Shown here one piece after another: positions 885 through 36,137 of a DNA stretch of 64,000 nucleotides. The notes beneath the pieces are model-generated. The model was not told where the DNA came from, made no database searches, and was given only the letters and a program-made list of their open reading frames with translations. How positions within the stretch are numbered: the stretch's first letter is position 1; each line of letters opens with the position of its first letter. The stretch spans positions 1-64,000 of the IMG/VR virus record IMGVR_UViG_3300025154_000052. One strand, given 5' to 3'. The position numbers were made by a program, and so were the translations under genes. The stretch is from a virus.

Positions 885-3800
885 ATGGCAGACAAATTTC
901 CCGCCCGAATGATTCGTGCCTTCAAAGTCGGTCTGAAGTGGCATAGCGAGGGCTTTAGCGGCGACGGGCTGAAGCCTGAAACGGTGCGTCGTGCTCAGGG
1001 AGTAGTCGACGGGGACACGACTCCGTCTGATGACTGGGTTAAGGAAGCCTCCGCATGGCATTCCCGGCACCACTCCAATGGTGTCAGCAAGATCGACGCA
1101 AGGAAGGCAGACCCAGTCCCGCTTGATGTGGCAACGGCACTCTGGGGAATACTGGGGCCATCGGATGCAAAGTGGTGGGACAACCAGGCACAGGAGCTCG
1201 CAGAAACGATGAAAGACGCCATTGCGATCGTTATCAAGGACACCTACTCTGTCGGCGGACTCCATCGGCTCGACTTCTCCGACGACACCTATCTGTCGGT
1301 GGAGGACGTCGAGAAGTGGCTTGCTGCCAACTTCTACGCCATCGAAGATGACGAGGCTATCACCAAGACGGGGAACCGCTGGGTCGCTACCATCCGTGCC
1401 GAGAGCAAGTTCCAGTCAGGCAATCCCCGCTTTCATCCGCTTCCACTCGGTGATGGCGTGACCGCCTACATCGGCGTCCCGCTGCCCAAGCAGGCTAAGC
1501 CTCCGCGTAAGACCAATAAGCCGGTGGAAGGTGGTCCCATTGTTCCTGAGATCGTGGATGTCGAGTCGCTGGCCTCGGGTGGTGAGGTCAAGACCGAGCC
1601 GACACTGAAGGCCGATGAGCCGACAGCCGACATGACCGATGACGAGGCGAAAGCCGCACAGCAGGCCCGAGCCGGACGGTTCGCCATCGAGATTCTCGAA
1701 AGTACCAACCTTCGATTTCCCAAAGGGTTCCCCATAAGCCTCGAGGACTACGGGGATCCTGTCAATCTCAAGTATCCGCTCATACCGAAGGGGCGACTGC
1801 GGAACGCCCTGTCCCGATTCACCGCCAATTACGAGGAGTATACCAAGCCTCGCTCCCGGAAGATCGTGTTCAGCCGTATCGTGTTAAGGGCACTCCAGGA
1901 AGGTGTCACGGTCGACCCTGATAGCACCCTGGTGAAGACTCTTCTGGCCCCTGATCTGAAGCGGCGCGTGGATGAGCAGGTACAGGAAACCGCCAAGGAG
2001 ATGGTCGCGAAACTGGATCTGGGTGGCGGAACCATTCAGGACTTCATGGCGCTACTCGAGCGGGCCGTTACGAGCGCTGCCAAAGATGGGTTGTGGGGAA
2101 CCTATAATCACAGCGACCACTACTATCCCGGCTACATCCACGCGGTCATGGAGACGGAGGTCATCGTCTACAACTACCGCGATGTGATGTACTACCGTGC
2201 AGGCTGGGCACGGAACGGCGACACGATCACGTTCAGCGACGTCCAGGAAGTCAAGGCGGTAGTTTCATTCATTTCGGTGGAGCCGCCGAAGCCTCCTGAG
2301 TCCGTCACCGTACAGACAGAGAAGATCGATCTGGCCGGACAATCGGTCGAAGTATTCCGGCGTGACATGTACGATGCGGTGAAGAAGGCAGGACTTACAG
2401 GCATCTTCGGACCCACGGATCATGACTACTGCCCGGCCAGTTTGGACGGTGTCTACGAGACATACATTATCGTTTACAACTATCGCAATGATGGCTTCTA
2501 CCAGACCGACTGGACCAAGTCCGCAGATGGCTCAATCACCTTCTCGAACGTAACCCAGGTGGAGGCGGTCGTCTCGTTCAAGCCGGTGGCAAAGCAGTTC
2601 AACAAGACCGATCTGGATGATGTCCTGGCCGACTGGAAACATTTGCCTGCCGAGATGACGCAGGCGTCCGTACTCAAAGCGGTCGCGGACTTCGAAGCGA
2701 AGATCGACGCACTACCTATTCCAAACCGAACACAGACCTACAAGGGCGCAGATGGGAACACGGTGCGACTCGTCCCCATCCTGAAGATCGACGCACCCAA
2801 TCGAATTGTTTCCTACGAGGTCTATCGGCCATACGAGAAGGACACTCACGGGGACTGGATGTCCCCTGAGACGATCTACAACGCCATGACCTTCTGGATG
2901 GAGAAAAGTCAGGAATTCGATGCCGACCACGACTATGCCAAGCGAGACGCGCGAGTCGTTGAGAACTGGCAGGTGAAGTCGGGTGATACCACGGCACCCG
3001 AAGGCACATGGATGCAGTCTGCCAAGATCATGGATGACAGCCTCTGGAAGTCCATTGAGGCAGGTGAATACGGCTATGTGTCCATCGCAGGGACGGCAAA
3101 GCCTGTCCAGGGGAGTGAACCTCCAGCCATGAAAATGAAGCAGAACGCAGAACTCCAAGAGATGGAGGTCTGGAAAGTATCCTTCGTCAATCGAGGTGCC
3201 AATTCAGGCCAGGGTGTGAAGTCGTTCAGTGTCTTCAAGTCGGGCGATGACTTCGAGTCTGAAGCATTGACTCGCATTTTTGACAGTCAGTCAAGTGACG
3301 TGTCAACTTCAAAGCAGAGTATGTGGAAGCGCGTTTGGGACTGGATCGTTGGTGGTCCGGCACAGAGTGAGACTGACAGCTTCCTCAAAGAGTTTGAATC
3401 GACCATCCGGGAGAGTGACATGAAGGATGTACTCAAGGGTATCGCCCAGTTCGTGCGCGAGAACCACCAGAAGGACCCCACGGCAACCGTCCAGGCGCTG
3501 AAGGACGTTCACGGCGGCGTCGGTCTGCTCATCAGCGAGATCGAGAAGACCACCACGAAGCCGACCGAGACCGAGAAGACCGAAGCCGACAAGACCACGG
3601 AAAAGGCTGACATGGCGTGCCCGTCCTGCAAGGCCATGAACACCAAGGAAGCCAAGTTCTGCAGTTCGTGCGGTGGCTCCATGAAGCCGAAGGCCGAGAA
3701 GACCGAGAACGCGGACGCGCTCAAGGAGAAGACCGAGAACGCGGCAGTCGACCCGTCCGTTGCCCTGAAGGCCGAGATGGAAGCGCTCAAGGCACAGATG

Positions 3801-4103
3801 ACCGACTTCACCAAGGCCCAGCAGGCACTGAAGGACGAGAATGCCGTGCTGAAGGCCCAGGCCGATAAGGCCCAGACCGATAAGGCCACAGCTGAGAAGG
3901 ACGCCGCTGCAAAGGCTGCGCTGCTGAAGGATGCCGGGCTGGGTGGCAACACCACGACATCGGACGCTGACGCCGGGAAGCAGAACACCGAGAAGTCCGA
4001 TCCGTGGGCCGAAGTCGACGCCGTGGGCCGATCCTACAAGGTCGCGGGCGCCACGGGCCGTCCCCGTGTGGAGAAGGCGTCGGACGACGACGATTCCTGG
4101 TAA
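885..4103 (+). CDS. Multidomain prohead protease/scaffold (XkdF-like protease domain, tandem repeat domains, zinc ribbon, coiled-coil scaffold tail)
   Basis: IVSYEVYRPYEKDTHGDWM...FDADH...VVENWQV...WMQSAKI...YVSIAG resembles XkdF-type proteases. Also CPSC...CSSC and an Ala/Lys/Glu-rich C-terminus. Directly upstream of the capsid gene. Confidence 0.75.
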   Translation: MADKFPARMIRAFKVGLKWHSEGFSGDGLKPETVRRAQGVVDGDTTPSDDWVKEASAWHSRHHSNGVSKIDARKADPVPLDVATALWGILGPSDAKWWDNQAQELAETMKDAIAIVIKDTYSVGGLHRLDFSDDTYLSVEDVEKWLAANFYAIEDDEAITKTGNRWVATIRAESKFQSGNPRFHPLPLGDGVTAYIGVPLPKQAKPPRKTNKPVEGGPIVPEIVDVESLASGGEVKTEPTLKADEPTADMTDDEAKAAQQARAGRFAIEILESTNLRFPKGFPISLEDYGDPVNLKYPLIPKGRLRNALSRFTANYEEYTKPRSRKIVFSRIVLRALQEGVTVDPDSTLVKTLLAPDLKRRVDEQVQETAKEMVAKLDLGGGTIQDFMALLERAVTSAAKDGLWGTYNHSDHYYPGYIHAVMETEVIVYNYRDVMYYRAGWARNGDTITFSDVQEVKAVVSFISVEPPKPPESVTVQTEKIDLAGQSVEVFRRDMYDAVKKAGLTGIFGPTDHDYCPASLDGVYETYIIVYNYRNDGFYQTDWTKSADGSITFSNVTQVEAVVSFKPVAKQFNKTDLDDVLADWKHLPAEMTQASVLKAVADFEAKIDALPIPNRTQTYKGADGNTVRLVPILKIDAPNRIVSYEVYRPYEKDTHGDWMSPETIYNAMTFWMEKSQEFDADHDYAKRDARVVENWQVKSGDTTAPEGTWMQSAKIMDDSLWKSIEAGEYGYVSIAGTAKPVQGSEPPAMKMKQNAELQEMEVWKVSFVNRGANSGQGVKSFSVFKSGDDFESEALTRIFDSQSSDVSTSKQSMWKRVWDWIVGGPAQSETDSFLKEFESTIRESDMKDVLKGIAQFVRENHQKDPTATVQALKDVHGGVGLLISEIEKTTTKPTETEKTEADKTTEKADMACPSCKAMNTKEAKFCSSCGGSMKPKAEKTENADALKEKTENAAVDPSVALKAEMEALKAQMTDFTKAQQALKDENAVLKAQADKAQTDKATAEKDAAAKAALLKDAGLGGNTTTSDADAGKQNTEKSDPWAEVDAVGRSYKVAGATGRPRVEKASDDDDSW

Positions 4104-26304: not shown

Positions 26305-28185
26305 ATGTTCAATCTGCGGAACAATGGTGCAATTTACAGGCTGGTTCTCTGGATCTCCCAGACTCTCGGTGACATCACGTCGTCCCCCACGATTACGGCG
26401 GGCACGGGGGCGCCCACGGCAGCCGAGCCGAACGGGTCCACCTATCACCGGACGAACGGATCCATCTACAAGCGGACCGGTGGCGCCTGGGTGGAGATGA
26501 TCGATACGTCGGTCATCAATGACATGGACTTCACGGCGAATGCCGACGCGGCAGCCGGTGCAAACGAAGTCGGGTCGTTGCGGGCCAAGTCGTCCAGTGT
26601 GGCCGAAGTCCATTCGGTCGTGCTCGAGAACGACGCCACCAATAACTGGGCCGCCCTCTACCGCCTGAACGGCGCAACCCCCGTCTCGACACACGTCCAC
26701 CTGGGCGTCCCCGGTGACACGAATCTGGGCCGAGACATCACCATCACGATGGACGCCAGCACAGACGCGGGCCTGGCCAACCCTGCCACCATCGTTGCCA
26801 GGGGCCAGGAGGACGACCTGTCCTTCGCCGGCGTGGCCACATACGCCTTCGACGGAAACATTACGGTGACGGGCACGGTGGACGGGCGGGACGTGGCGAC
26901 GGACGGCGGGAAACTCGACGGGGTCGAGTCTGGGGCAGACGTGACCGACGCGACCAATGTCGCGGCGGCTGGCGCGGTTATGGAATCGGATACGACCACG
27001 GCAGCGATGAACTTTGTGGTCGATGAAGACTCGATGGTCTCGAATCTCGATACCAAGGTGCCCACGCAGCAGAGCGTCAAGGCATACGTCGACGGACGAG
27101 TCGCGGGACTGCTCGACTACAAGGGCGGCTATAACGCGGCGACGAACACGCCTGACCTGGACACGACGCCTTCCGGGGTGCTGAAGGGGGACAGTTACAC
27201 GGTAACCGTTGCCGGCACTTTCTTCACCGCGGAGGTCGAGGCGGGCGACATGCTGATTGCCGAAGTCGATGCGGCGGCGGCCGAGGCGGACTGGACGATC
27301 GTTCAGTCGAATCTTACGGCCGGGTCGATCAAGACCGCATACGAGTCCAACGCAGACACCAACGCGTACACGGACGCAGAGGCTGCCAAGTTGGCAGGGA
27401 TAGAGGCATCGGCCGACGTGACCGATTTTACGAACGTGTCTGCCGCCCTGGCAGCGGCTTCGGGATCTGTTGCGGTCAACAGCCAGAAGATCACCGGGCT
27501 GGCTTCCGGTGCGGCTTCCGGCGAAGCGGTCCATTACTCGCAGCTCGAGTACTCGCTGAACGGCGTCATCCCGAACGCGGTGCTCGCTCTCCCGAATGCG
27601 GTGGTCGATGGAGATTACGTAGAGATCGGAACGGATCTCTACGAGTGGGACGACGGCGGCGGAACGGCTCAGCCGGGAGCCATCACCGTTCTCCTGGGTG
27701 GCGGAATCGCAGACGCTCGAACGAACCTGATCACCGCAATCAACACGTCCGGAACCGAGAACGTGAAGGCGACGGCAGATGGAACCGGGGTGATGATCCA
27801 GCCGGCCGATGCCCCAGGCGGAACGGTGGTGGCTGCCAACCCGGACATCCTGCTTGCCGAGACCATCACCGATGTGGCGGACATCTGGGTGTGCGGTGCG
27901 GTGAACTTGAACACGCTCGGCGGCGAGGCAACAGCACTGAAGCGGAAGTGTACGGCCAGCATCACGATCACGACTGCGATGGTAGCGGGGGCCAGTTACA
28001 GACTCTTCGACGCCCCGTTCACGCCGAGTCGAATCAAGGGAGTCTTTGTCCGGACGGCAGTCGGCGCGATCCGGTACGACGTGACTGACCAGTTCACGAT
28101 CACCGGCAACGGGGTGACGTGGACCAGCGCAGGCGCAACACACCTCGTCAACACGAACGTCGTCGAGGTGGAAGTCATCGGATAG
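26305..28185 (+). CDS. Tail fibre / virion fibre protein
   Basis: GTGAP...GSTYHRT...GGAW motif and KLDGVESGADVTD / KLAGIEASADVTD repeats typical of phage fibres. Confidence 0.65.
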   Translation: MFNLRNNGAIYRLVLWISQTLGDITSSPTITAGTGAPTAAEPNGSTYHRTNGSIYKRTGGAWVEMIDTSVINDMDFTANADAAAGANEVGSLRAKSSSVAEVHSVVLENDATNNWAALYRLNGATPVSTHVHLGVPGDTNLGRDITITMDASTDAGLANPATIVARGQEDDLSFAGVATYAFDGNITVTGTVDGRDVATDGGKLDGVESGADVTDATNVAAAGAVMESDTTTAAMNFVVDEDSMVSNLDTKVPTQQSVKAYVDGRVAGLLDYKGGYNAATNTPDLDTTPSGVLKGDSYTVTVAGTFFTAEVEAGDMLIAEVDAAAAEADWTIVQSNLTAGSIKTAYESNADTNAYTDAEAAKLAGIEASADVTDFTNVSAALAAASGSVAVNSQKITGLASGAASGEAVHYSQLEYSLNGVIPNAVLALPNAVVDGDYVEIGTDLYEWDDGGGTAQPGAITVLLGGGIADARTNLITAINTSGTENVKATADGTGVMIQPADAPGGTVVAANPDILLAETITDVADIWVCGAVNLNTLGGEATALKRKCTASITITTAMVAGASYRLFDAPFTPSRIKGVFVRTAVGAIRYDVTDQFTITGNGVTWTSAGATHLVNTNVVEVEVIG

Positions 28186-28615
28186 CCTCGCTCTCCCTCG
28201 CCCACTTTCCTACCTGTCCACAGTAACTAATCCTCTGACTGAAACTCGCTGGAATACACTGCGTGACTTCCTTCCCGTCCGCACTGTGCGGGCATTCCGA
28301 CTTGCACCGCTCGAGTACTCGTCGCTCCACGTCCGGTTGTTGATCCACTGCTTCCGTCTTCTCTGTCGCGGCTTCGAACCTTGATGCGCATACACTGATT
28401 ATCGCACCCACCTGGTCAGCGTACATCTTGCCGACGCACACGTCAGCCTTGAGACACGACTCACAGCCAACACCCGCCGCTCGAGTCGGAATGATGGCGT
28501 AGCCGATCGACTTCACATGCTGGACCACGAAGCCGCACGAGGTGCACAGCCCTTCCTCTGACGCCGCCTTTACGCTCTCGCACATCAGACACATGTCATC
28601 CATCGCAGCCTCCAA
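28175..28615 (-). CDS. Cys-rich hypothetical protein
   Basis: Several CxxC pairs; GGAGG RBS. Confidence 0.5.
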   Translation of the reverse strand: MEAAMDDMCLMCESVKAASEEGLCTSCGFVVQHVKSIGYAIIPTRAAGVGCESCLKADVCVGKMYADQVGAIISVCASRFEAATEKTEAVDQQPDVERRVLERCKSECPHSADGKEVTQCIPASFSQRISYCGQVGKWARESEAIR

Positions 28616-29456
28616 GATAACGCTTTATCGCCTCCCTGCCGGTCGTAGTCGCCCGGTAGGTATATCGACCAGGGCATGGCTCCGTTCGCTCTACCAGTCG
28701 CCTTGCAGTGAGCCTGGCGCACATTCTCGACATGCCCTGCCAACTGATGCCGATCCCCATTGCCGCCTGTGCTATTGATGATCGTCCATCGGCCATGGCG
28801 ATCAGTGCCGCGAGCGCTTCATGGGACAGCGGGACAGGCATGGGAGGTAGAACGATCGCATACCGACTCACCTCCTCACCGACTGCGTATCGGTCCACCA
28901 CACGGCCACACGCAGGACAGTGGGGACGGTGTGACATGAGCGGCGCCCAGAAGGTAACGATCTCAGACCCGGCGTGACGAGTTGACGCCTTGCACTCAAG
29001 TCGCTTCCATCGGAAGGGTGTCTCGAGGCATGACACGTTGAACAGGTACCGCTTTCGTAGCCGCGGGCTGATCCAGTCAGGGTCTACGATCTCGGGTCGA
29101 TGGGTGAGAAACTTCTCAACCTCGTCGAGCGCAAACATGCGCATGGTCGCTCGCCCAAATACCTTGCGCGGTCCATCATGTGTCACCATGCCGAGTTCCG
29201 TCACCCAGCGGGTGATCTCTTTCGGACTGACACCCAGTAGCGCAGTAATGTGGAGCGTCGGATACCATCCCTGATGATCCGTCTGGGTGTAGCCGAGTTC
29301 AGCCGCCTTGGCCTTCACCGCACCCACAGTGCGCCTTACACGCTTGGCAACAAACTCAGGTGTCTGCGCCCCCCACATGTCCGTCAGGATGTCCAGATCA
29401 GATTTCGAGTCGCTGAATGCATCCTGTTTGTTGATGATTCCCCATCTGCGTCCCAT
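28596..29456 (-). CDS. Putative DNA-binding regulator (HTH, zinc finger, winged-HTH)
   Basis: VAKRVRRTVGAVKAKAAELG, TALLGVSPKEITRW, CPAC, QAAMGIGISWQGMSRMCARLTARRLVER. Confidence 0.55.
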   Translation of the reverse strand: MGRRWGIINKQDAFSDSKSDLDILTDMWGAQTPEFVAKRVRRTVGAVKAKAAELGYTQTDHQGWYPTLHITALLGVSPKEITRWVTELGMVTHDGPRKVFGRATMRMFALDEVEKFLTHRPEIVDPDWISPRLRKRYLFNVSCLETPFRWKRLECKASTRHAGSEIVTFWAPLMSHRPHCPACGRVVDRYAVGEEVSRYAIVLPPMPVPLSHEALAALIAMADGRSSIAQAAMGIGISWQGMSRMCARLTARRLVERTEPCPGRYTYRATTTGREAIKRYLGGCDG

Positions 29457-29479
29457 ACTCCGCTCTCCGCATCGCGCCG

Positions 29480-30043
29480 CTACAACAAGCTTTCAGTGGG
29501 TGTGCTGGAGCTGTTCGCGATAATGGCGTCCAGCACAGGGCTCAATTTATCGTTGGTGACGATCCGGCTGATGCGCCGGTACTCTTCGAGAAAGGACTCG
29601 TACACGTCCTTGTGGACCCAGCCGGTAACATCCCCTATCAGAAAGGGTACCCAGTCGCCCGACTCGGGGTCTGGGTTTGAGTCGAATTGGTGGATGGCCT
29701 GGCGTAGCGCAACCTGGACGGCAGGCGGGAGACCGCGAAGTTTCAGCAGATTCCTGATGTACCCTGACGGCACACCCAGCATCATCTGTCCGGCGTGCTT
29801 CTTCGCCCGGTATCCCATAATGAACCGTCCGCGATCGTCTCGACGTAGCCAGCCTTCGTACTCATCAAATGCGGATTTGAGGAACCCGCCGACCTGCCCG
29901 TTCGGGAGGCTTTGGGGTGGGCGTGACTGGCCTGATGATATCGACGGCGCTGTCGGGGACGGCGAACCAGTGGGTTCCTTCGTCTCCTGGCCACCAACAG
30001 ACGTAGGTAACTTCAGCGTGGGTCGTCTTCTGTCGCCTGACAT
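29480..30043 (-). CDS. Hypothetical protein (true start probably further downstream)
   Basis: MGYRAKKHAGQMMLGVPSGYIRNLL resembles the small xPFGKxKG...VPxxYLxW domain. The 5' part overlaps another ORF. Confidence 0.45.
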   Translation of the reverse strand: MSGDRRRPTLKLPTSVGGQETKEPTGSPSPTAPSISSGQSRPPQSLPNGQVGGFLKSAFDEYEGWLRRDDRGRFIMGYRAKKHAGQMMLGVPSGYIRNLLKLRGLPPAVQVALRQAIHQFDSNPDPESGDWVPFLIGDVTGWVHKDVYESFLEEYRRISRIVTNDKLSPVLDAIIANSSSTPTESLL

Positions 30044-30176
30044 ACTCCCCCTGTTCCCGATTCAACGCCGACTCGGGGATGATCCGGATCTCCGTCCCCG
30101 CTGGCATCTCCATCCACCCGCCCTTCCCCTCCCGGTGGAATTTCAGAGTCGTCTTCAGTGTCGCCGGAATGAACAT
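29865..30176 (-). CDS. Hypothetical small beta-rich protein (start uncertain)
   Basis: Protein-like ORF overlapping its neighbours. Confidence 0.4.
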   Translation of the reverse strand: MFIPATLKTTLKFHREGKGGWMEMPAGTEIRIIPESALNREQGEYVRRQKTTHAEVTYVCWWPGDEGTHWFAVPDSAVDIIRPVTPTPKPPERAGRRVPQIRI

Positions 30177-30414
30177 CGGTCACCCCATCTGCCAGCCTGA
30201 ACCGTGGTTCATCCTCACTGTCGAGCCAGTCAGCGACCAGTTTTCCTTCCATCGTGAGTTTGATGGCTGCCGCCATGGCGAGTGCTCCGGCACACCAGTT
30301 CACGAACCGATGCGCCTCCTCCTCGGTAACTCTCGCGTCTCCTCGTCCATCAACGAGTGCGATGATGAGGGCTTCGATCTGGTCGTCGGTAAGGACGTTG
30401 ATACTATCGAGCAT
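30013..30414 (-). CDS. Hypothetical protein translationally coupled to the type V nuclease
   Basis: ATG lies inside the last codons of the nuclease gene, after AAGGA. Confidence 0.55.
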   Translation of the reverse strand: MLDSINVLTDDQIEALIIALVDGRGDARVTEEEAHRFVNWCAGALAMAAAIKLTMEGKLVADWLDSEDEPRFRLADGVTDVHSGDTEDDSEIPPGGEGRVDGDASGDGDPDHPRVGVESGTGGVCQATEDDPR

Positions 30415-32089
30415 CGTGCAGTTCCTTCTTTGCGCATCGTGGTTTCTTCACGACTGCACTCTGTTCACCGGTTGTCTTCGCCTCATCCAGCGCTTTACGC
30501 AGTATGTTCACAGCCGCGTTGATGTCGCGATCATGAGACACACCACACACCGGACATGTCCATGTTCTCACCGACATCGGCAGATCGTCCACTCGCTCAC
30601 CACATGCAGAGCATATCTTGCTCGATGCGGACCACTTATCGATCCGCACCGACCGACCGCCATACGCCGGCGCCTTGTACTCGAGTTGCCGGCGGAATTC
30701 CCCAGGGCATGCGTCGGTCAGACTGCGCTGGAATCCGCGCTTGCGCTTCCCTTCGCCGGTCATCTTCTCTGCGTTCTGAGTCTTCATCTCGTTGAAGTTG
30801 ATGTCCTCCAGTCCGATAAAACTGTAGGTCTGCACGATGCGAGTTGTGGCCTTGTGCATGTGATCATTACGCTGATTGGCGGCATGCTGCTGGAGTTTGG
30901 TGATCTTCGCCTCAAGGTCGATCATGCGCTGTGACTTCTGGCGACCACACCCCCGGCACCGACGACAGCGCTTTGACTCGTCCTCCAGATCCTTCCCGGT
31001 GCCCTTGCAGACCTCACATGTCACTGCCCGCCTATCCTGGACCTGGCCTGCACCAGAGCACCGCTTGCATTCCTTCTTCTTGTCCGGTTCACCAGCGCAC
31101 GCCGGGCACGGAAGCCAGATACTCTTGAGACTGATGGCCTGATTGAGTTTCGCGATCCGTGGTTCGTTCTTTCGTGCAGCGTGGAGGTTATCGATCTTCT
31201 CACCAGTGGAGAGAGTGGCAGTTGACGCTACGCCAAGATCGACACCGACTGATGGACCGGCATGCGCGGCAGGATCGGGAACGGTAATATCCATCACCTG
31301 AATAGATGCGTACCAATGCCGGTTGTCCTCGAAGACTCGAGCAGACGCAACCCGCCCTTGAAAACGCAGTTCTTCTGCCATCGTAATGCGCTGATGGTAT
31401 TTGTTCCCAGTGAACACGAAGTGTTTGCCATCAACGCCAAATATCGCGTTGCAGCCACTCTTGTCTGAACCCGGCAGAAGAAAACTCTTCCCGCTGCTTC
31501 TGTTCTTGAATCGCGGATGACCACATCCCATCCATGCGGGGAAATCCTTACACCAGCAGTTCTTGTCATCCTTACGGCGTGAGCATGGCTTTGAACCACA
31601 CTCCTTGAAATACTTATTCCACGCCTTGTTGAGGTCGATGAATGCATTGAAGCCGACCATCGCAGGCACGGCATTTGCGATTACTGCACCACGCAGTTGC
31701 CCGGATGCCGATGTCTTCTTGACCTGTGTCCATGCCGCACTCGCAGGAGCAGAGTCCCAACCTGTGGGAGCCCGCTTCAACCGATCATCATCTGTATAAC
31801 TTGCCCATTCAACCTTGGGCTTGCTCTGCTTTTTCTTTTTATCGTCAGACACTTCAGTCTTTTTCTTTTTACGCTTTGATTCTTTCTTGGGTTTCAGTGC
31901 TGGATCACGGGCCAGTCGTTCGGCGTCTGAGAGTGCATTCCAGTCGGCAATGACGCGACGATTCGACTCAATTAAGAATGACAGCCCGAAGTTCCAGGCG
32001 GTGCGAGCCACGAAGGCGCAGTCTTGGAGAAAGCGTTCCTGCTCTTTGGTGGGGAACAGACGTATTCTGTGCGACCTTGATATGTTCAC
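30404..32089 (-). CDS. CRISPR-associated TnpB-derived type V nuclease (Cas12f / V-U-like)
   Basis: N-terminal HRIRLFPTKEQ...ARTAWN (TnpB-type). RuvC-I VGVDLG, RuvC-II IGLEDINF, CSAC...CPVC zinc finger, RuvC-III HDRDINAAVNI. GTG at 32089 after GGAGG (ORF track start 32101). Adjacent to CRISPR arrays. Confidence 0.85.
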   Translation of the reverse strand: MNISRSHRIRLFPTKEQERFLQDCAFVARTAWNFGLSFLIESNRRVIADWNALSDAERLARDPALKPKKESKRKKKKTEVSDDKKKKQSKPKVEWASYTDDDRLKRAPTGWDSAPASAAWTQVKKTSASGQLRGAVIANAVPAMVGFNAFIDLNKAWNKYFKECGSKPCSRRKDDKNCWCKDFPAWMGCGHPRFKNRSSGKSFLLPGSDKSGCNAIFGVDGKHFVFTGNKYHQRITMAEELRFQGRVASARVFEDNRHWYASIQVMDITVPDPAAHAGPSVGVDLGVASTATLSTGEKIDNLHAARKNEPRIAKLNQAISLKSIWLPCPACAGEPDKKKECKRCSGAGQVQDRRAVTCEVCKGTGKDLEDESKRCRRCRGCGRQKSQRMIDLEAKITKLQQHAANQRNDHMHKATTRIVQTYSFIGLEDINFNEMKTQNAEKMTGEGKRKRGFQRSLTDACPGEFRRQLEYKAPAYGGRSVRIDKWSASSKICSACGERVDDLPMSVRTWTCPVCGVSHDRDINAAVNILRKALDEAKTTGEQSAVVKKPRCAKKELHDAR

Positions 32090-32111
32090 TTCCGCCTCCA
32101 CTCTACACTTT

Positions 32112-32348
32112 GCTACTCAGCATCCGCTGTCACGCGCCGGTGGTAAACAGATGGGCTGGATCGAGCAGCTCACAATGGTTCTCGCTACTCAGCATCCGCT
32201 GTCACGCAGATCGGGGGGCGGTCATGATTACCAAACCTGTCACAATGGTTCTCGCTACTCAGCATCCGCTGTCACGTCTCTTTCCAGGCGGTTACGTCGC
32301 ACACCTCTTCGGTCACAATGGTTCTCGCTACTCAGCATCCGCTGTCAC
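32112..32348 (-). CRISPR. CRISPR mini-array 1: three near-complete repeats, one truncated terminal repeat, 3 spacers
   Basis: Repeat GTGACAGCGGATGCTGAGTAGCGAGAACCATTGTGAC (37 bp, minus sense) at 32312-32348, 32239-32275 and 32169-32205 (one mismatch); 22-bp remnant at 32112-32133. Spacers 36, 33 and 35 bp. Confidence 0.93.
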
Positions 32349-32391
32349 TGCCTCACTAAATTTGTAAGGTGTAGCAACCATTTGCGAGCAC

Positions 32392-32462
32392 GTAGCGCGA
32401 ACCTTCGCGTTTCCAGTTGAGCGTCAACTATATCCGCGCTTATACCGATGTGTGCTCACCGG
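32392..32462 (-). ncRNA. Putative tracrRNA-like scaffold and anti-repeat, copy 1
   Basis: 46/62 identity with 32910-32971; hairpins with compensatory changes; 13/16 match to repeat 1 in anti-repeat orientation at 32392-32407. Confidence 0.6.
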
Positions 32463-32557
32463 TAAATACCTGAAATCTATTGTTTATTTTTCTTGTCTAT
32501 ACCTGCGCGAACCTGCCTGTGTTTTGATGTTTGCTACAGGTCCGCGATCATTCTAGT

Positions 32558-32855
32558 CACTCCCAACGATCAGCTATTGTCAGCCATTACCCATCTCATC
32601 AGTGCCCTCAATGGCACTCCCAACGATCAGACATTGTCAGGTGTTGTGCACTGGTCGATCGGTTTTACCCAGACGCCCTCAATGGCACTCCCAACGATCA
32701 GACATTGTCAGTGTTAGCTGTAAGTGAGGTTAAAGTGGCAAGTATCGTCCCTCAATGGCACTCCCAACGATCAGACATTGTCAGCCGGGACTGTGTCAGC
32801 AGCAGCCGCACGCAGTGCGCCCTCAATGGCACTCCCAACGATCAGACATTGTCAG
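32558..32855 (-). CRISPR. CRISPR mini-array 2: four full repeats, one degenerate terminal repeat, 4 spacers
   Basis: Repeat CTGACAATGTCTGATCGTTGGGAGTGCCATTGAGGGC (37 bp, minus sense) at 32819-32855, 32748-32784, 32675-32711 and 32604-32640; degenerate copy at 32558-32583. Spacers 34, 36, 34 and 20 bp. Confidence 0.95.
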
Positions 32856-32891
32856 GGCTGCCACCAAGACGCCAGCAATTCCAATGGCTTA

Positions 32892-32971
32892 TGATCACGT
32901 TTTCGAGCGCCTTCGCGTTTCCGGTTAAGGTTTAACCATTGACGCGCTTAAGCCGACGCTAAGTTCACCGG
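32892..32971 (-). ncRNA. Putative tracrRNA-like scaffold and anti-repeat, copy 2
   Basis: Homologous to copy 1 at nearly the same distance from its first repeat; GAGCGCCTTCG versus repeat 2 GAGTGCCATTG. Confidence 0.55.
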
Positions 32972-33221
32972 CTATCAACTAGTTGAACGTCGTAACGTCC
33001 AATCCTGTATTCAGTTTTCAAAACTCGGTATAGACCATCTGGTCATGCGAGCGACCCCCGGGATCTGAGACATCGCCGGGCCGCTCGAAAAAGGATGTCG
33101 AAGGTGCTCTCATGAGTCATGAGAATTGGCCGATCACCGTAGAGCCTTAGCACCGACGACATGAACCCAGTCTAGCACGAATCATTAAACTAGTCTCTAA
33201 AATAATCCGTGCCAGGAGGTT

Positions 33222-33731
33222 TTAGTTCCCCATCGCCGCAAACGCCGCGTCGAACGGCGCTTCGTCCTCGGTCAACACGTCGATGTCGATCCACAGGCTC
33301 GAGTTCAGTCGATGGTAAAGAGCGTTCCACGTCGCCTCATCCAGTGCAGCGTCCACCTTGAATTCAAGGCAGGCGGACCCGCCCTGAACGAGGCACTTCA
33401 CCTTACCGGTAATGATGGCCTCGTTCAGGGTGATGACGGCGTGGTGAGTGTCCAGCGTGGCATGTAGACGAATAGTGAGAGGCGGGAAGGTGTCCTCAAG
33501 TTGGTCGTCCCAGCGGCGACCGTCAACACTGTCCTCGAGCCGCTGGCGAAGTCCTGGAAAGTGGGTCTCGACAGATTCGACGACCTCGTCCGGGACGTCT
33601 TCGTCGAGTTCAAGACGGAAGCCCATCTCCCCCCTGACTGCTCGCTCTCCCCGAAGTGGAGACACCTTGACCTTGTGGTGAGACCGAAACAAAGTGACCC
33701 GCACCCGCTTGAACGACTCGAACATATCCAC
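33222..33731 (-). CDS. Hypothetical protein
   Basis: 169 aa, GTGGA RBS-like sequence, own promoter. Confidence 0.6.
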   Translation of the reverse strand: MDMFESFKRVRVTLFRSHHKVKVSPLRGERAVRGEMGFRLELDEDVPDEVVESVETHFPGLRQRLEDSVDGRRWDDQLEDTFPPLTIRLHATLDTHHAVITLNEAIITGKVKCLVQGGSACLEFKVDAALDEATWNALYHRLNSSLWIDIDVLTEDEAPFDAAFAAMGN

Positions 33732-33756
33732 CCCACAGCAAAAAGACCACGGGTGT

Positions 33757-33784
33757 ATTATATCACGGGAGGGGAATGGATCAA
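33757..33784 (-). promoter_or_regulatory. Putative sigma70 promoter (may read through into the CRISPR locus)
   Basis: TTGATC-N16-TATAAT with an extended TG. Confidence 0.6.
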
Positions 33785-33835
33785 CAAAATTAAATGGTAG
33801 TTTAATCTATCCGTACATGCGGACAAAAAAAGGGG

Positions 33836-34333
33836 TCATGTGGTGATGGTCACTTCGATGCGTGCCGAGTCGGATTCGACCCACTCCCACGATCCCGCTC
33901 TCACCACACGAAGACGGTCATCCTTGATCACACCAGCCTTGACCATGGCGTCGAGCACGCTACCGATCGCGTTGTCGCCGTCACACGAACCAGCGCCACC
34001 GATGAGTTTCACATCCACGCGAACTCGCTCGAGTCGCATGGGTCCAGTCCATTGTGAAGTGATCTGCTTCTGTGCCTGCCTCAACCACTCGGTGTAATCG
34101 GCTGGCCGTCGAACGTCGATACCTCCTCCGTCGTCGATAAACGACCGTCCACGGGCTTTTCCCTTGGGTGGAAGGCTCAAGACAAGCATGTAGGTCTGAC
34201 CGCTCTCTACAACCGGGACAGTGGGCTTCCTGGCCGTGTTCGTTCGCCCGATCTTCCGGGTGTCGACCATCCGGAGATCTCCACCCGCCTCTTTCAGCAA
34301 CCGTCTGAACTCTTCCCGCGTAATGTCCGCCAT
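33836..34333 (-). CDS. rusA: Holliday junction resolvase, RusA family
   Basis: LPPKGKAR...DGDNAIGSVLDAMVKAGVIKDD...ARIEVTI. Confidence 0.8.
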   Translation of the reverse strand: MADITREEFRRLLKEAGGDLRMVDTRKIGRTNTARKPTVPVVESGQTYMLVLSLPPKGKARGRSFIDDGGGIDVRRPADYTEWLRQAQKQITSQWTGPMRLERVRVDVKLIGGAGSCDGDNAIGSVLDAMVKAGVIKDDRLRVVRAGSWEWVESDSARIEVTITT

Positions 34334-34428
34334 CGCTTCCGCTCCGATTTGTCGTGTAGAATCGGTCGTGATACAGTCGAATCTGTTGGAACCAACACAA
34401 CAGTCAATCCCTGTACAGGAGTAATTTC

Positions 34429-34761
34429 ATGGCTATCACAGTCGCAAATGATGCCGTTATCGGCGTCGTCCCGTCGTCCCCCAAGCGCACCATCCGTATG
34501 AAACTCACCGGAGACGCGACCTACGCAGCCGGTGGCTACACCCTCGGTCTCGGTGCGCGCGCCGGCTTCAAGGACCTGGGAACCGGCGTCAAGCCCAACA
34601 CCATCACCTTCGAGGGATGTACGGTGTTCACTCTGGCCGCCGCCTACGACCGGGCCAACGACAAGATCTACATCGTCGACTACTCGACCGGCGCCGAAGC
34701 GGCCGACAACCTGGGAGGCATCAACGGCGCGATCTTCTACTTCCAGGTGACCTTCGAGTAG
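34429..34761 (+). CDS. Small putative virion decoration-like protein in reverse orientation
   Basis: AGGAG RBS, strongly C/G-ending codons, GDATYAAGGY motif; only plus-strand gene in the block. Confidence 0.55.
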   Translation: MAITVANDAVIGVVPSSPKRTIRMKLTGDATYAAGGYTLGLGARAGFKDLGTGVKPNTITFEGCTVFTLAAAYDRANDKIYIVDYSTGAEAADNLGGINGAIFYFQVTFE

Positions 34762-34763
34762 GA

Positions 34764-36137
34764 TCACCGTTCCAGATCCGAGAACCGCCCAGTCTCCTTC
34801 TCGAACATTACCTTCACGGTGCCAGTCGGGCCATTCCGCTGCTTTGCGATGATGATCTCGCACACCCCCTTCTGATCAGGATCGATGTCCTTGTTGTAGA
34901 CCTCGTCACGATACATGAACATGATGAGATCCGCGTCCTGCTCCAACGAACCACTCTCACGCAAATCAGACATAACAGGCCGTTTGTCTTGTCTACTCTC
35001 GAGACTTCGATTGAGTTGGGCCAGGGTGAGGCACGGCACCTCTAACTCTTTCGCCAGTCGCTTGAGTTCACGGCTACGCCGGGCGATCTCCTGCTCCCGG
35101 CTCCCGCCGATGTCGCTGTCATCCATCAACTGGATGTAGTCGAGGATGATCGCCTTGAGTTGGTACTTCTTGTGAGCGGCCCGGGCCTTGACTTTCAACT
35201 CTTCGATGGTTCCTGGCATCTCGTCGATGTAGATCGGCGCGTCGTAGATCCGATCTACGGCATCGTTCAGGAGTGCTGCTTCCTCGTCGGTCATCTGTCC
35301 GGTACGAACCGCCTGAGCATTGACACCGGACTCTGAACAGAGTAGCCGAAGGTGCAGTTGTAGCAGGCTCATCTCAACACTGAATATGGCCACCGGGTAG
35401 TTGTAAACCATCGCCATGTATCGGGCGAGGTACAACGCAAAGGCCGTTTTTCCCATCGACGGACGGCCCGCAAGGATGATCTGATCCGTGGGTTGAAGAC
35501 CAGCTGTAAGTCTGTCGAGTTCAGTCAACCCGGTGGGGACTCCGGTGATGGCTGCCTGATTATTCCGCAACCGCTGAATATGGTCCACGGTGGCCTGGGT
35601 GGCGTCAGCGATGGAGATCAACCCCTTCCCCGTCGTCTGCGCTTCCGCCAGTTCTTCACCGACCTGACTGGTGAAGGTGAGGAGTTCCCCCACAGGCGTT
35701 CCCATGTCGATAGACTTCTCGGAGAGACGCTTACCCGCGGCATATGCCTTTCTGCGAATGGCATCTTCCTTCACGGTCAAGGCATAGTGCCGGGCCCGGG
35801 ACGTGTCAGCGACATGCGTTGTAAGATCGGAGACATATTCCAGGCCACCCGCGACATCCACCCGATCCGCCTTTATCAGCGCTCGAGGTAGGGTTACTCC
35901 GTCGATGGGTGACGACTGGGCGTGCAACTCCACGATGGCCTGGAAGATCACCTGATGCCGTGGATTCCAGAAGTCAGCCGGCTTCACAAGGGTGAGCACA
36001 TCATCCACGACCGAATTGTCGATGATGATAGATCCGATCACGGCTCGCTCGGCAACTTCATCCCGGGGCAACGGGCTATTCGCTTCCGTCGTTCTGAGTC
36101 CTGGCCTTGTCCGCTCCCGCTTCTGCTCTTTCCTCAC
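34764..36137 (-). CDS. dnaB: Replicative DNA helicase DnaB
   Basis: AERAVIGSII, GRPSMGKT, DYIQL, AQLNRS, DLRESGSLEQDAD, KQRNGP. GTG start overlaps the previous stop; no intein. Confidence 0.96.
   Translation of the reverse strand: MRKEQKRERTRPGLRTTEANSPLPRDEVAERAVIGSIIIDNSVVDDVLTLVKPADFWNPRHQVIFQAIVELHAQSSPIDGVTLPRALIKADRVDVAGGLEYVSDLTTHVADTSRARHYALTVKEDAIRRKAYAAGKRLSEKSIDMGTPVGELLTFTSQVGEELAEAQTTGKGLISIADATQATVDHIQRLRNNQAAITGVPTGLTELDRLTAGLQPTDQIILAGRPSMGKTAFALYLARYMAMVYNYPVAIFSVEMSLLQLHLRLLCSESGVNAQAVRTGQMTDEEAALLNDAVDRIYDAPIYIDEMPGTIEELKVKARAAHKKYQLKAIILDYIQLMDDSDIGGSREQEIARRSRELKRLAKELEVPCLTLAQLNRSLESRQDKRPVMSDLRESGSLEQDADLIMFMYRDEVYNKDIDPDQKGVCEIIIAKQRNGPTGTVKVMFEKETGRFSDLER

Follow-up and report, generated by a model that had tools for sequence, protein, structure and literature searches.

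The DNA examined here (hereafter the window) is a stretch of 64,000 nucleotides (nt) corresponding to positions 1 to 64,000 of the IMG/VR virus record IMGVR_UViG_3300025154_000052, which is 137,577 nt long and 87% complete. Its minus strand carries a gene for a TnpB-family RuvC nuclease, which we refer to as the effector, and immediately upstream of this gene 2 short CRISPR arrays, here called array A and array B, each of which is preceded by a scaffold or leader element. In the direction of the minus strand, the features of the locus are:

32857..32975, minus strand: scaffold/leader A, with a CGCG/CGCG stem, a 7-bp hairpin, the GGAAACGCGAAGG core (32922-32910) and a putative anti-repeat at about 32913-32880
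32547..32856, minus strand: array A, with 5 repeats of 37-38 nt and 4 spacers of 33, 35, 33 and 19 nt (repeat search)
32584-32547, minus strand: terminal repeat of array A, degenerate in its 3' third
32350..32466, minus strand: scaffold/leader B, with the same stem, a 7-bp hairpin, the GGAAACGCGAAGG core (32414-32402) and a putative anti-repeat at about 32405-32372
32098..32349, minus strand: array B, with 4 repeats of 36-37 nt and 3 spacers of 36, 33 and 35 nt (repeat search)
32134-32098, minus strand: terminal repeat of array B, degenerate in its 3' third and overlapping the GGAGG ribosome-binding site of the effector gene
30404..32089, minus strand: effector gene, coding for a TnpB-family RuvC nuclease of 561 amino acids (aa) (open reading frame, Pfam, NCBIfam and alignment)

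A preliminary description of the window, made from its letters, had attributed the locus to a phage and had placed the nuclease gene on the same strand as, and directly 3' of, 2 mini-arrays with distinct repeats; both statements held. One arm of the record codes for tail sheath, tape measure, baseplate and head-tail adaptor proteins, and the arm carrying the CRISPR locus contains DnaB, RusA, exonuclease and helicase genes. Judging from these structural and replication genes, the 137.6-kb record is a tailed phage, the sheath protein of which showed only 24-30% identity to its best matches in cultured phages. Contigs of about 137 kb from the same phage were assembled in at least 12 samples, one of which is the groundwater metagenome SRR1658472 (PRJNA268031), and the locus was identical across the 4 contigs compared, wherever these overlapped it. 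Profile searches for Cas1, Cas2, the Y1 transposase TnpA (PF01797) and the serine recombinase (PF00239), for which control genomes scored positive, identified none of these proteins in the window or in the whole 137,577-nt record, which extends the earlier statement that cas1, cas2 and tnpA are missing from the window.

The effector and its relatives

The open reading frame (ORF) of the effector spans 30404..32101 on the minus strand and yields 565 aa when counted from the first GTG. The public gene call (P0002) starts at the GTG at 32089, with a GGAGG located 5 nt upstream, and gives the 561 aa used for numbering here. The translation contains a TnpB-type N-terminus (HRIRLFPTKEQ...) and the motifs GVDLG, LEDIN and DRDINAA, in agreement with the preliminary description of a RuvC nuclease of roughly 560 aa with intact D/E/D motifs. 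The Pfam domains HTH_OrfB_IS605 (PF12323), OrfB_IS605 (PF01385) and the Cas12f1-like TNB zinc ribbon (PF07282) were all recognized above their gathering scores, and the NCBIfam model for guided_TnpB (NF040570) matched with 207 bits at a cut-off of 100. The scores were 151 bits against NF038281 (cut-off 425) and 134 bits against NF038280 (cut-off 350), and the effector fell far under every cut-off of the IS200- and IS607-specific TnpB, Cas12f2 and C2c8 models, with 33 bits for the Cas12f2 model NF049972 (cut-off 450). The guided_TnpB score, the 3 Pfam TnpB domains and the lack of marks of a mobile IS605/IS607 copy bear out the earlier proposal of a domesticated, TnpB-derived system.

An exhaustive HMMER search of representatives of about 15 billion proteins identified a single relative, P0003, which is 501 aa long and matched with an E-value of 9e-116 (41% identity, BLASTP). 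The other matches were ordinary TnpBs of about 400 aa, with E-values of about 1e-43 to 1e-52, which aligned mainly over the C-terminal RuvC-II/TNB/RuvC-III part. When degenerate peptides were scanned against IMG/VR and the contigs of JGI metagenomes, no further members were recovered, and the matches were ordinary TnpBs of about 380 aa that had no arrays. A repeat in one of these sequences (L035) was found to be a 30-nt tandem repeat and not CRISPR. None of the GenBank phages encoded a protein with more than about 29% identity to the effector, and the effector motifs were found in no paper of the literature searched. The preliminary description had called for a phylogeny against TnpB proteins; in the maximum-likelihood tree, the effector and P0003 formed a pair outside the 68 nearest TnpBs, with a Shimodaira-Hasegawa-like approximate likelihood ratio test (SH-aLRT) support of 100 and a stem of 1.22 substitutions per site.

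In the alignment of 70 sequences, which comprised the effector, P0003 and the 68 TnpBs, the residues D284, E428 and C493/C496/C512/C515 were invariant and D522 was nearly invariant. Since the RuvC and zinc residues are conserved, the nuclease site looks intact. Compared to the 68 TnpBs, the effector and P0003 share a CWC-containing loop (aa 168-185), a short EGKR loop and a 54-aa insertion (aa 325-378) with four CxxC motifs and a weak match to the DnaJ zinc-finger domain; the last of these is located between RuvC-I and the helix preceding RuvC-II. A lysine-rich insertion at about aa 68-122 (31760-31890, minus strand), which contains runs of K and is predicted to be disordered, is absent from P0003. 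This insertion showed predicted local distance difference test (pLDDT) values of 40-50 in the AlphaFold model of the effector, the mean pLDDT of which was 78.9. The top Foldseek matches to this model were ISDra2 TnpB (5e-20), ISFba1 TnpB and LaTranC (4.6e-17), followed by Cas12p, Cas12f and Cas12m.

The best PADLOC profile was Cas12u4 (V-U4/Cas12n), with 220 bits for the effector and 132 bits for P0003, and the Cas12f profile gave 200 bits for the effector. Ordinary TnpBs outscored the effector on the Cas12u4/Cas12f profiles (241-298 bits), and because 5 of them obtained 247-298 bits on Cas12u4, the match to this profile says nothing about membership. Identity as Cas12n (V-U4) was therefore rejected, as was identity as Cas12f, given the Cas12f2 score cited above and the equally non-specific PADLOC Cas12f profiles.

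The repeat arrays and their scaffolds

In array A, 4 of the 5 repeats match the reference at 95-100%, with a spacing of 71, 73, 71 and 57 nt, and in array B 3 of the 4 repeats are 97-100% identical. The 70-73-nt periodicity of these near-perfect 36-38-nt repeats is far beyond chance. Both arrays lie 5' of the effector gene on its strand, so that a single RuvC effector adjoins the arrays, and the last repeat of array B runs into its ribosome-binding site. The terminal repeats of both arrays have kept their 5' two-thirds and have degenerated solely at the 3' end, which suggests that the arrays are read in the minus-strand direction, with the guide located 3' of the repeat. It was also noted that the last spacer of array A (32585-32603), which precedes the degenerate terminal repeat, is only 19 nt long, as compared to 33-36 nt for the other 6 spacers.

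Repeats A and B are related yet different, the parts in common being just the 5' UGACA and the 3' CCAUUGxG. In each of them, a hairpin of differing sequence occupies the same internal position (CAAUG/CGUUG in A and CAGC/GCUG in B). A 47-nt direct repeat of 77% identity is located ahead of each array, and the 2 leaders can be aligned over about 115 nt in the order CCGGTGA...TCGG.TTAAGCGCG, 7 variable bases, the 7-bp hairpin, GGAAACGCGAAGG and a variable stretch, with the conservation located 55-115 nt upstream of the first repeat. The scaffold core pattern has exactly 2 occurrences in the 137.6-kb genome, one ahead of each array. The one match to the pattern elsewhere in IMG/VR was dismissed as chance, as it fell within the coding sequence of a high-GC phage unrelated to this one, and no known RNA family was identified by Rfam over positions 29000-34000.

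The pairing of the hairpin is kept between A and B despite 2 double changes, G-C to A-U and A-U to G-C. Minimum free energy folds of the scaffold and first repeat, run independently for the 2 cassettes, converged on the same topology, in which the CGCG/CGCG stem encloses the hairpin (z-scores of -3.1 for B and -1.6 for A). In both folds, a long-range helix is formed by pairing of the GG of GAAGG with the CC of CCAUUG and extends into the variable parts, and the last 7-9 nt of the repeat are single-stranded beside the spacer. From the GG:CC anchor, 11 of 12 positions of anti-repeat B are paired with repeat B, and 7 of 7 positions of anti-repeat A with repeat A, followed in the latter by 4+4+5 bp broken by loops. 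In the two-sequence consensus, 7 of the 27 pairs are compensatory. The cognate duplexes had energies of -22.9 and -26.4 kcal/mol versus -14.0 and -18.0 kcal/mol for the swapped duplexes, the cognate pairings being better by about 8.4-8.9 kcal/mol, and the pairing of the whole leader B with repeat B was significant against shuffles (p = 0.002). An unconstrained scan for long anti-repeats on both strands of positions 28000-35500 gave nothing over background; the leaders became informative only when they were analyzed with the register anchored. We also dropped a pseudoknot in which the repeat tail would pair with the internal loop of the scaffold, since it fits A (UCAAU:AUUGA) but not B in the same register.

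The preliminary description had remarked that a single effector next to 2 repeat families is unusual. The arrangement was indeed seen, but we amend its description, as the 2 repeat families are best explained as 2 duplicated and diverged scaffold-plus-array cassettes, each with its own putative anti-repeat. The most likely reading of each scaffold, for which the pairing patterns offer moderate support, is that of a private helper for its own array, similar to a trans-activating CRISPR RNA (tracrRNA). A scaffold and repeat of about 130 nt with a guide at the 3' end are laid out like an omegaRNA or a single-guide RNA, in agreement with a published proposal that the guide RNAs of type V systems originated when a transposon RNA was split.

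On balance, we consider it probable that the locus is a phage-borne, adaptation-less, TnpB-derived type V (V-U/TranC-like) CRISPR system composed of 2 tandem cassettes and 1 effector. A separate promoter upstream of each cassette would drive its minus-strand transcription, and array B would probably be on one transcript with the effector gene. The scaffold of about 90 nt would serve as the tracrRNA-like helper, of which the conserved 5' stem, the hairpin and the GGAAACGCGAAGG core would be recognized by the protein, and the variable stretch 3' of GAAGG would pair with the cognate repeat, in cis with the first repeat and in trans with the others. The last 7-9 nt of the repeat (AUUGAGGGC or AUUGUGA) would remain free and form the guide together with the spacer that follows; the guide would lie 3' of the scaffold, which is the TnpB/Cas12 orientation. 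The resulting ribonucleoprotein would cut DNA that matches the spacer and is flanked by a protospacer-adjacent or transposon-adjacent motif, with competing phages, mobile elements of other kinds or loci of the host as likely targets.

One effector could serve both arrays because the parts that it would contact, namely the scaffold core, the 5' UGACA and the 3' CCAUUG of the repeat, are conserved, and only the helix between repeat and anti-repeat has co-diverged. The co-diverged helix would tie each helper RNA to its own array, and the degenerate 3' ends of the terminal repeats would prevent the production of guides from flanking phage DNA.

Evidence against this reading and alternative explanations

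Several results weigh against the reading of the locus as an active 2-cassette system. The covariation is drawn from 2 sequences, one per cassette. The energies of the anti-repeats were only moderately exceptional. Compared to shuffles, the p-values were 0.03-0.04 for anti-repeat A and 0.05-0.07 for the 34-nt segment of anti-repeat B; compared to genome windows, they were 0.09 and 0.01, respectively. The whole leader A gave a p-value of 0.26 against repeat A. A strict promoter scan listed no sigma-70 site ahead of either cassette; a possible -35/-10 pair in leader B (TTTACC, 16 nt, TATAAG) was read by eye. The location of the arrays upstream of the effector is atypical, since arrays are placed downstream of the effector in nearly all conserved associations of Cas12 and CRISPR (PMC10691335).

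No match to the spacers was found in the phage's own genome, and none above chance in GenBank phages and PLSDB. Furthermore, the 20-22-nt cores of spacers A2, A3, B1 and B2 had no exact match in IMG/VR, nor did the core of spacer B3 in GTDB species genomes. The best PLSDB match, to spacer B3 (32134-32171), covered 32 of 38 positions in a Nonomuraea gerenzanensis record at an E-value of 0.7, which is at the chance level, and so is a 32/36 match in PLSDB that straddles the border between spacer and repeat. The array sequences were invariant between all assemblies compared, and hence no spacer turnover was seen. In one assembly of the same phage, ENA ERZ27254733 k141_440965 (137,443 nt), the first base of the contig is the first base of repeat B3 (contig 1-130), and the repeats of 36 nt are far shorter than the assembler k of 141; the break may reflect polymorphism of the array in the population or an arbitrary cut of a circular assembly.

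The preliminary description had proposed a search for homologues with adjacent arrays, and the source of P0003, a 1768-nt Logan contig, does contain repeat-like copies 5' of the gene, albeit with modest statistics. Within the 94 nt 5' of the P0003 start there are two units of about 27 nt that end in GTGAC and are 44 nt apart (a gap of about 15 nt), and a third repeat-like copy, GTGACAGGATGCC..., runs into the ribosome-binding site, as does repeat B4 in the phage. The 168 nt after the P0003 stop codon (1601-1768) end at the contig end in GAAAGGATCGCGAAGG, which resembles the scaffold core; this downstream stretch closes with CGCGAAGG. The similarities were weak, with p-values of 0.045 for repeat B versus the region 5' of P0003 and 0.18 for the scaffold versus the region 3' of it. 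The flanks of P0003 could represent a decayed array or a short-guide layout, and as evidence for a conserved association between effector and array they are suggestive. The functional link between the nuclease and the arrays thus has its basis in the anatomy of the locus in one phage, to which the sole homologue adds weak comparative support.

Among the alternatives, the most likely is that the same effector and arrays work with the CRISPR RNA (crRNA) alone. The upstream elements would then be promoters, leaders or other cis-regulatory RNAs, the anti-repeats would be due to chance or be remnants of the duplication, and the hairpin within the repeat would be the handle, as in Cas12r, Cas12j, Cas12l or Cas12m. 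The marginal advantage of the anti-repeat energies over shuffles agrees with this explanation, as does the internal hairpin that occupies the same place in both repeats with different sequences, and Cas12r, which is of similar size (564 aa), is tracrRNA-free. We nevertheless regard it as unlikely. It leaves unaccounted for the helix that is anchored by GG:CC in the same register in both cassettes, with compensatory changes, and the preference of 8.4-8.9 kcal/mol for cognate over swapped pairing. Ordinary leaders are conserved beside the first repeat, whereas the conservation is here located 55-115 nt away from it. The nearest structural relatives of the effector, namely TnpB, LaTranC, Cas12p and Cas12f, use either an extended guide-RNA scaffold or a tracrRNA.

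Another possibility, which we consider improbable, is that the arrays are orphan phage mini-arrays that borrow the Cas machinery of the host, with the TnpB-like gene as an unrelated neighbor that has an undetected guide RNA of its own, or none. Phage mini-arrays commonly lack cas genes and imitate host repeats. The 36-37-nt repeats end in AUUGxG, which recalls the AUUGAAAC-type tag of type I/III repeats, 2 repeat families would suit 2 host systems, and the effector-array similarity seen at P0003 is statistically weak. Such arrays would not be expected to have a terminal repeat fused to the ribosome-binding site of a nuclease gene on the same strand, as in array B, or to recur as repeat-like copies abutting the start of the homologue P0003, and Cas6-type processing would have no use for a scaffold that carries a cognate anti-repeat. 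The nuclease has no other guide-RNA locus at its disposal. In addition, exact-match searches, which diverged copies would escape, recovered repeats A and B from no further contig of IMG/VR and the 5' 22-mer of repeat B from none of 185,579 GTDB species genomes; this argues mildly against the arrays simply mimicking those of a host.

Least probable of these alternatives, in our judgment very much so, is that the locus is a decaying or repurposed remnant, with static arrays and a nuclease that serves a role other than spacer-guided interference, such as homing, recombination or regulation. The arrays were unchanged in all assemblies compared, they are very short, with one spacer of just 19 nt, no targets were found, and the repeats upstream of P0003 look decayed, with their 44-nt spacing. 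On the other side, the internal repeats of both arrays show perfect or near-perfect conservation, the nuclease retains its catalytic and zinc residues, and both scaffolds keep their structure through compensatory change, a combination that points to purifying selection on the RNA as well as on the protein. A mobile IS200/IS605 or IS607 copy was rejected, since the record contains no tnpA or recombinase, the effector gene is present once, and its 3' end overlaps with the next gene.

Downstream of the effector, the gene order continues as follows:

28175..30414, minus strand: 4 co-oriented, overlapping ORFs of 133, 187, 286 and 146 aa, listed as context and with no membership of the system implied

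The 133-aa ORF starts 11 nt ahead of the effector stop codon and is followed by the 3 other overlapping ORFs. Because of this overlap and the gapless continuation of the genes, there is no room for a 3' omegaRNA or a transposon right end. The 133-aa ORF was rejected as a conserved accessory gene, as it is an ORFan without any match in Pfam, PHROG or PADLOC. The 286-aa ORF (28596-29456, minus strand) carries a winged helix of the MarR type at its C-terminus (Pfam MarR_2, 30 bits at a cut-off of 27) and is possibly a regulator, with no known link to the CRISPR system. At the other end of the window, the 1072-aa protein encoded at 885-4103 on the plus strand matches PHROG families of head maturation proteases, proteases and DNA methyltransferases over residues 606-990, approximately; it is a large multi-domain protein of the head module with 600 uncharacterized N-terminal amino acids.

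Comparison with known systems

Recruitment of TnpB to CRISPR has taken place many times, and 40 V-U* branches have been listed (Altae-Tran et al. 2023; PMC10691335). As a broader and more tentative scenario, it is possible that an unsampled TnpB lineage became a phage CRISPR effector, that its upstream scaffold was duplicated together with the array so that one nuclease reads 2 orthogonal tracrRNA:repeat pairs, and that the DnaJ-like insertion is a lineage-specific adaptation to these RNAs or to the target DNA. If active, the effector would be a compact RNA-guided nuclease of 561 aa from a nearly unsampled branch, with an insertion unseen in its nearest relatives, and it would offer a natural case of one effector that uses 2 co-diverged pairs of helper RNA and repeat, in other words a natural two-channel guide system. 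The use of 2 pairs would bear on the split of TnpB guide RNAs into tracrRNA and crRNA and on the coexistence of orthogonal guide scaffolds on one protein, which would be useful for multiplexing. The locus would also add to the mounting evidence that phages are a place where TnpB is converted to CRISPR, and its upstream arrays run counter to the rule that arrays are located at the former omegaRNA site.

The TranC proteins are described as transposon-CRISPR intermediates (Jin et al., Cell 2025, following the description in bioRxiv 10.64898/2026.03.27.714800). According to the same description and PMC10691335, TranC/V-U* systems have repeats of 32-38 nt and short arrays with medians of about 4.5-5 repeats, some of them are phage-borne (CauTranC9), and their tracrRNA is thought to be derived from the omega/reRNA scaffold. 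The phage locus resembles them in that the TnpB-like effector is close to ordinary TnpB in sequence and fold, the array is short, and cas1, cas2 and cas4 are absent. It differs by the upstream arrays, the 2 cassettes with different repeats and putative private scaffolds, and the DnaJ-like 4xCxxC insertion in the effector. LaTranC, the sole TranC member compared (from PDB), matched the effector with E-values of 6e-18 by sequence and 4.6e-17 by fold, and ISDra2 TnpB scored better.

Indeed, ISDra2 TnpB of the IS200/IS605 family (PDB 8H1J/8EXA) was the best match in fold and sequence to the WED/RuvC/TNB core of the effector, and the predicted scaffold and repeat of about 130 nt with a 3' guide mimics an omegaRNA. 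The phage effector differs from it by the absence of tnpA, of transposon ends and of a 3' omegaRNA site, by its single copy, by being about 160 aa larger, and by having its guides in upstream arrays. Cas12n (V-U4; RdCas12n, PDB 9J09) and Cas12f are likewise miniature, TnpB-like and tracrRNA-dependent, with a sequence match of 6e-27 to 9J09, but their arrays are located downstream, and the profile matches are not diagnostic for the phage effector.

Two further phage systems are of interest in this context. Cas12r-CRISPR of the Thermus Lalka phages has an effector of 564 aa, 29-bp repeats downstream of the gene, no tracrRNA, and a spacer located 5' of the repeat part in the crRNA (bioRxiv 10.64898/2026.04.20.719267). 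It shares with the locus studied here a TnpB-derived phage effector of nearly the same size (564 versus 561 aa), an adjoining short array and the lack of adaptation genes, and it too arose from a TnpB branch without an earlier link to CRISPR; repeat length, array position, tracrRNA independence, spacer orientation and the thermophilic source set it apart. Cas12p ("Cas12 hacker") is a phage-associated, early TnpB-to-Cas12 intermediate of 500-700 aa with a 37-nt repeat and a long tracrRNA with omegaRNA-like stems (bioRxiv 10.1101/2025.01.20.633832; PDB 9JFS). The phage association, the size range, the 37-nt repeat and the long, here predicted, helper RNA are common to both, but only the C-terminal RuvC/TNB part can be aligned (E-value 9e-7), the phage effector has no evident thioredoxin-binding domain, and the RNA layout differs.

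The suggestion in the preliminary description of a possibly undescribed lineage therefore stands in one respect and falls in another. Phage-borne TnpB-derived type V systems are already known as a kind, as exemplified by Cas12r, Cas12p and CauTranC9, whereas the effector itself, with its one relative at 41% identity among about 15 billion proteins, has a long branch of its own. What is distinctive here is the combination of a two-sequence effector lineage with a DnaJ-like insertion, arrays located upstream of the effector, and 2 cassettes with apparently private helper RNAs on a single effector.

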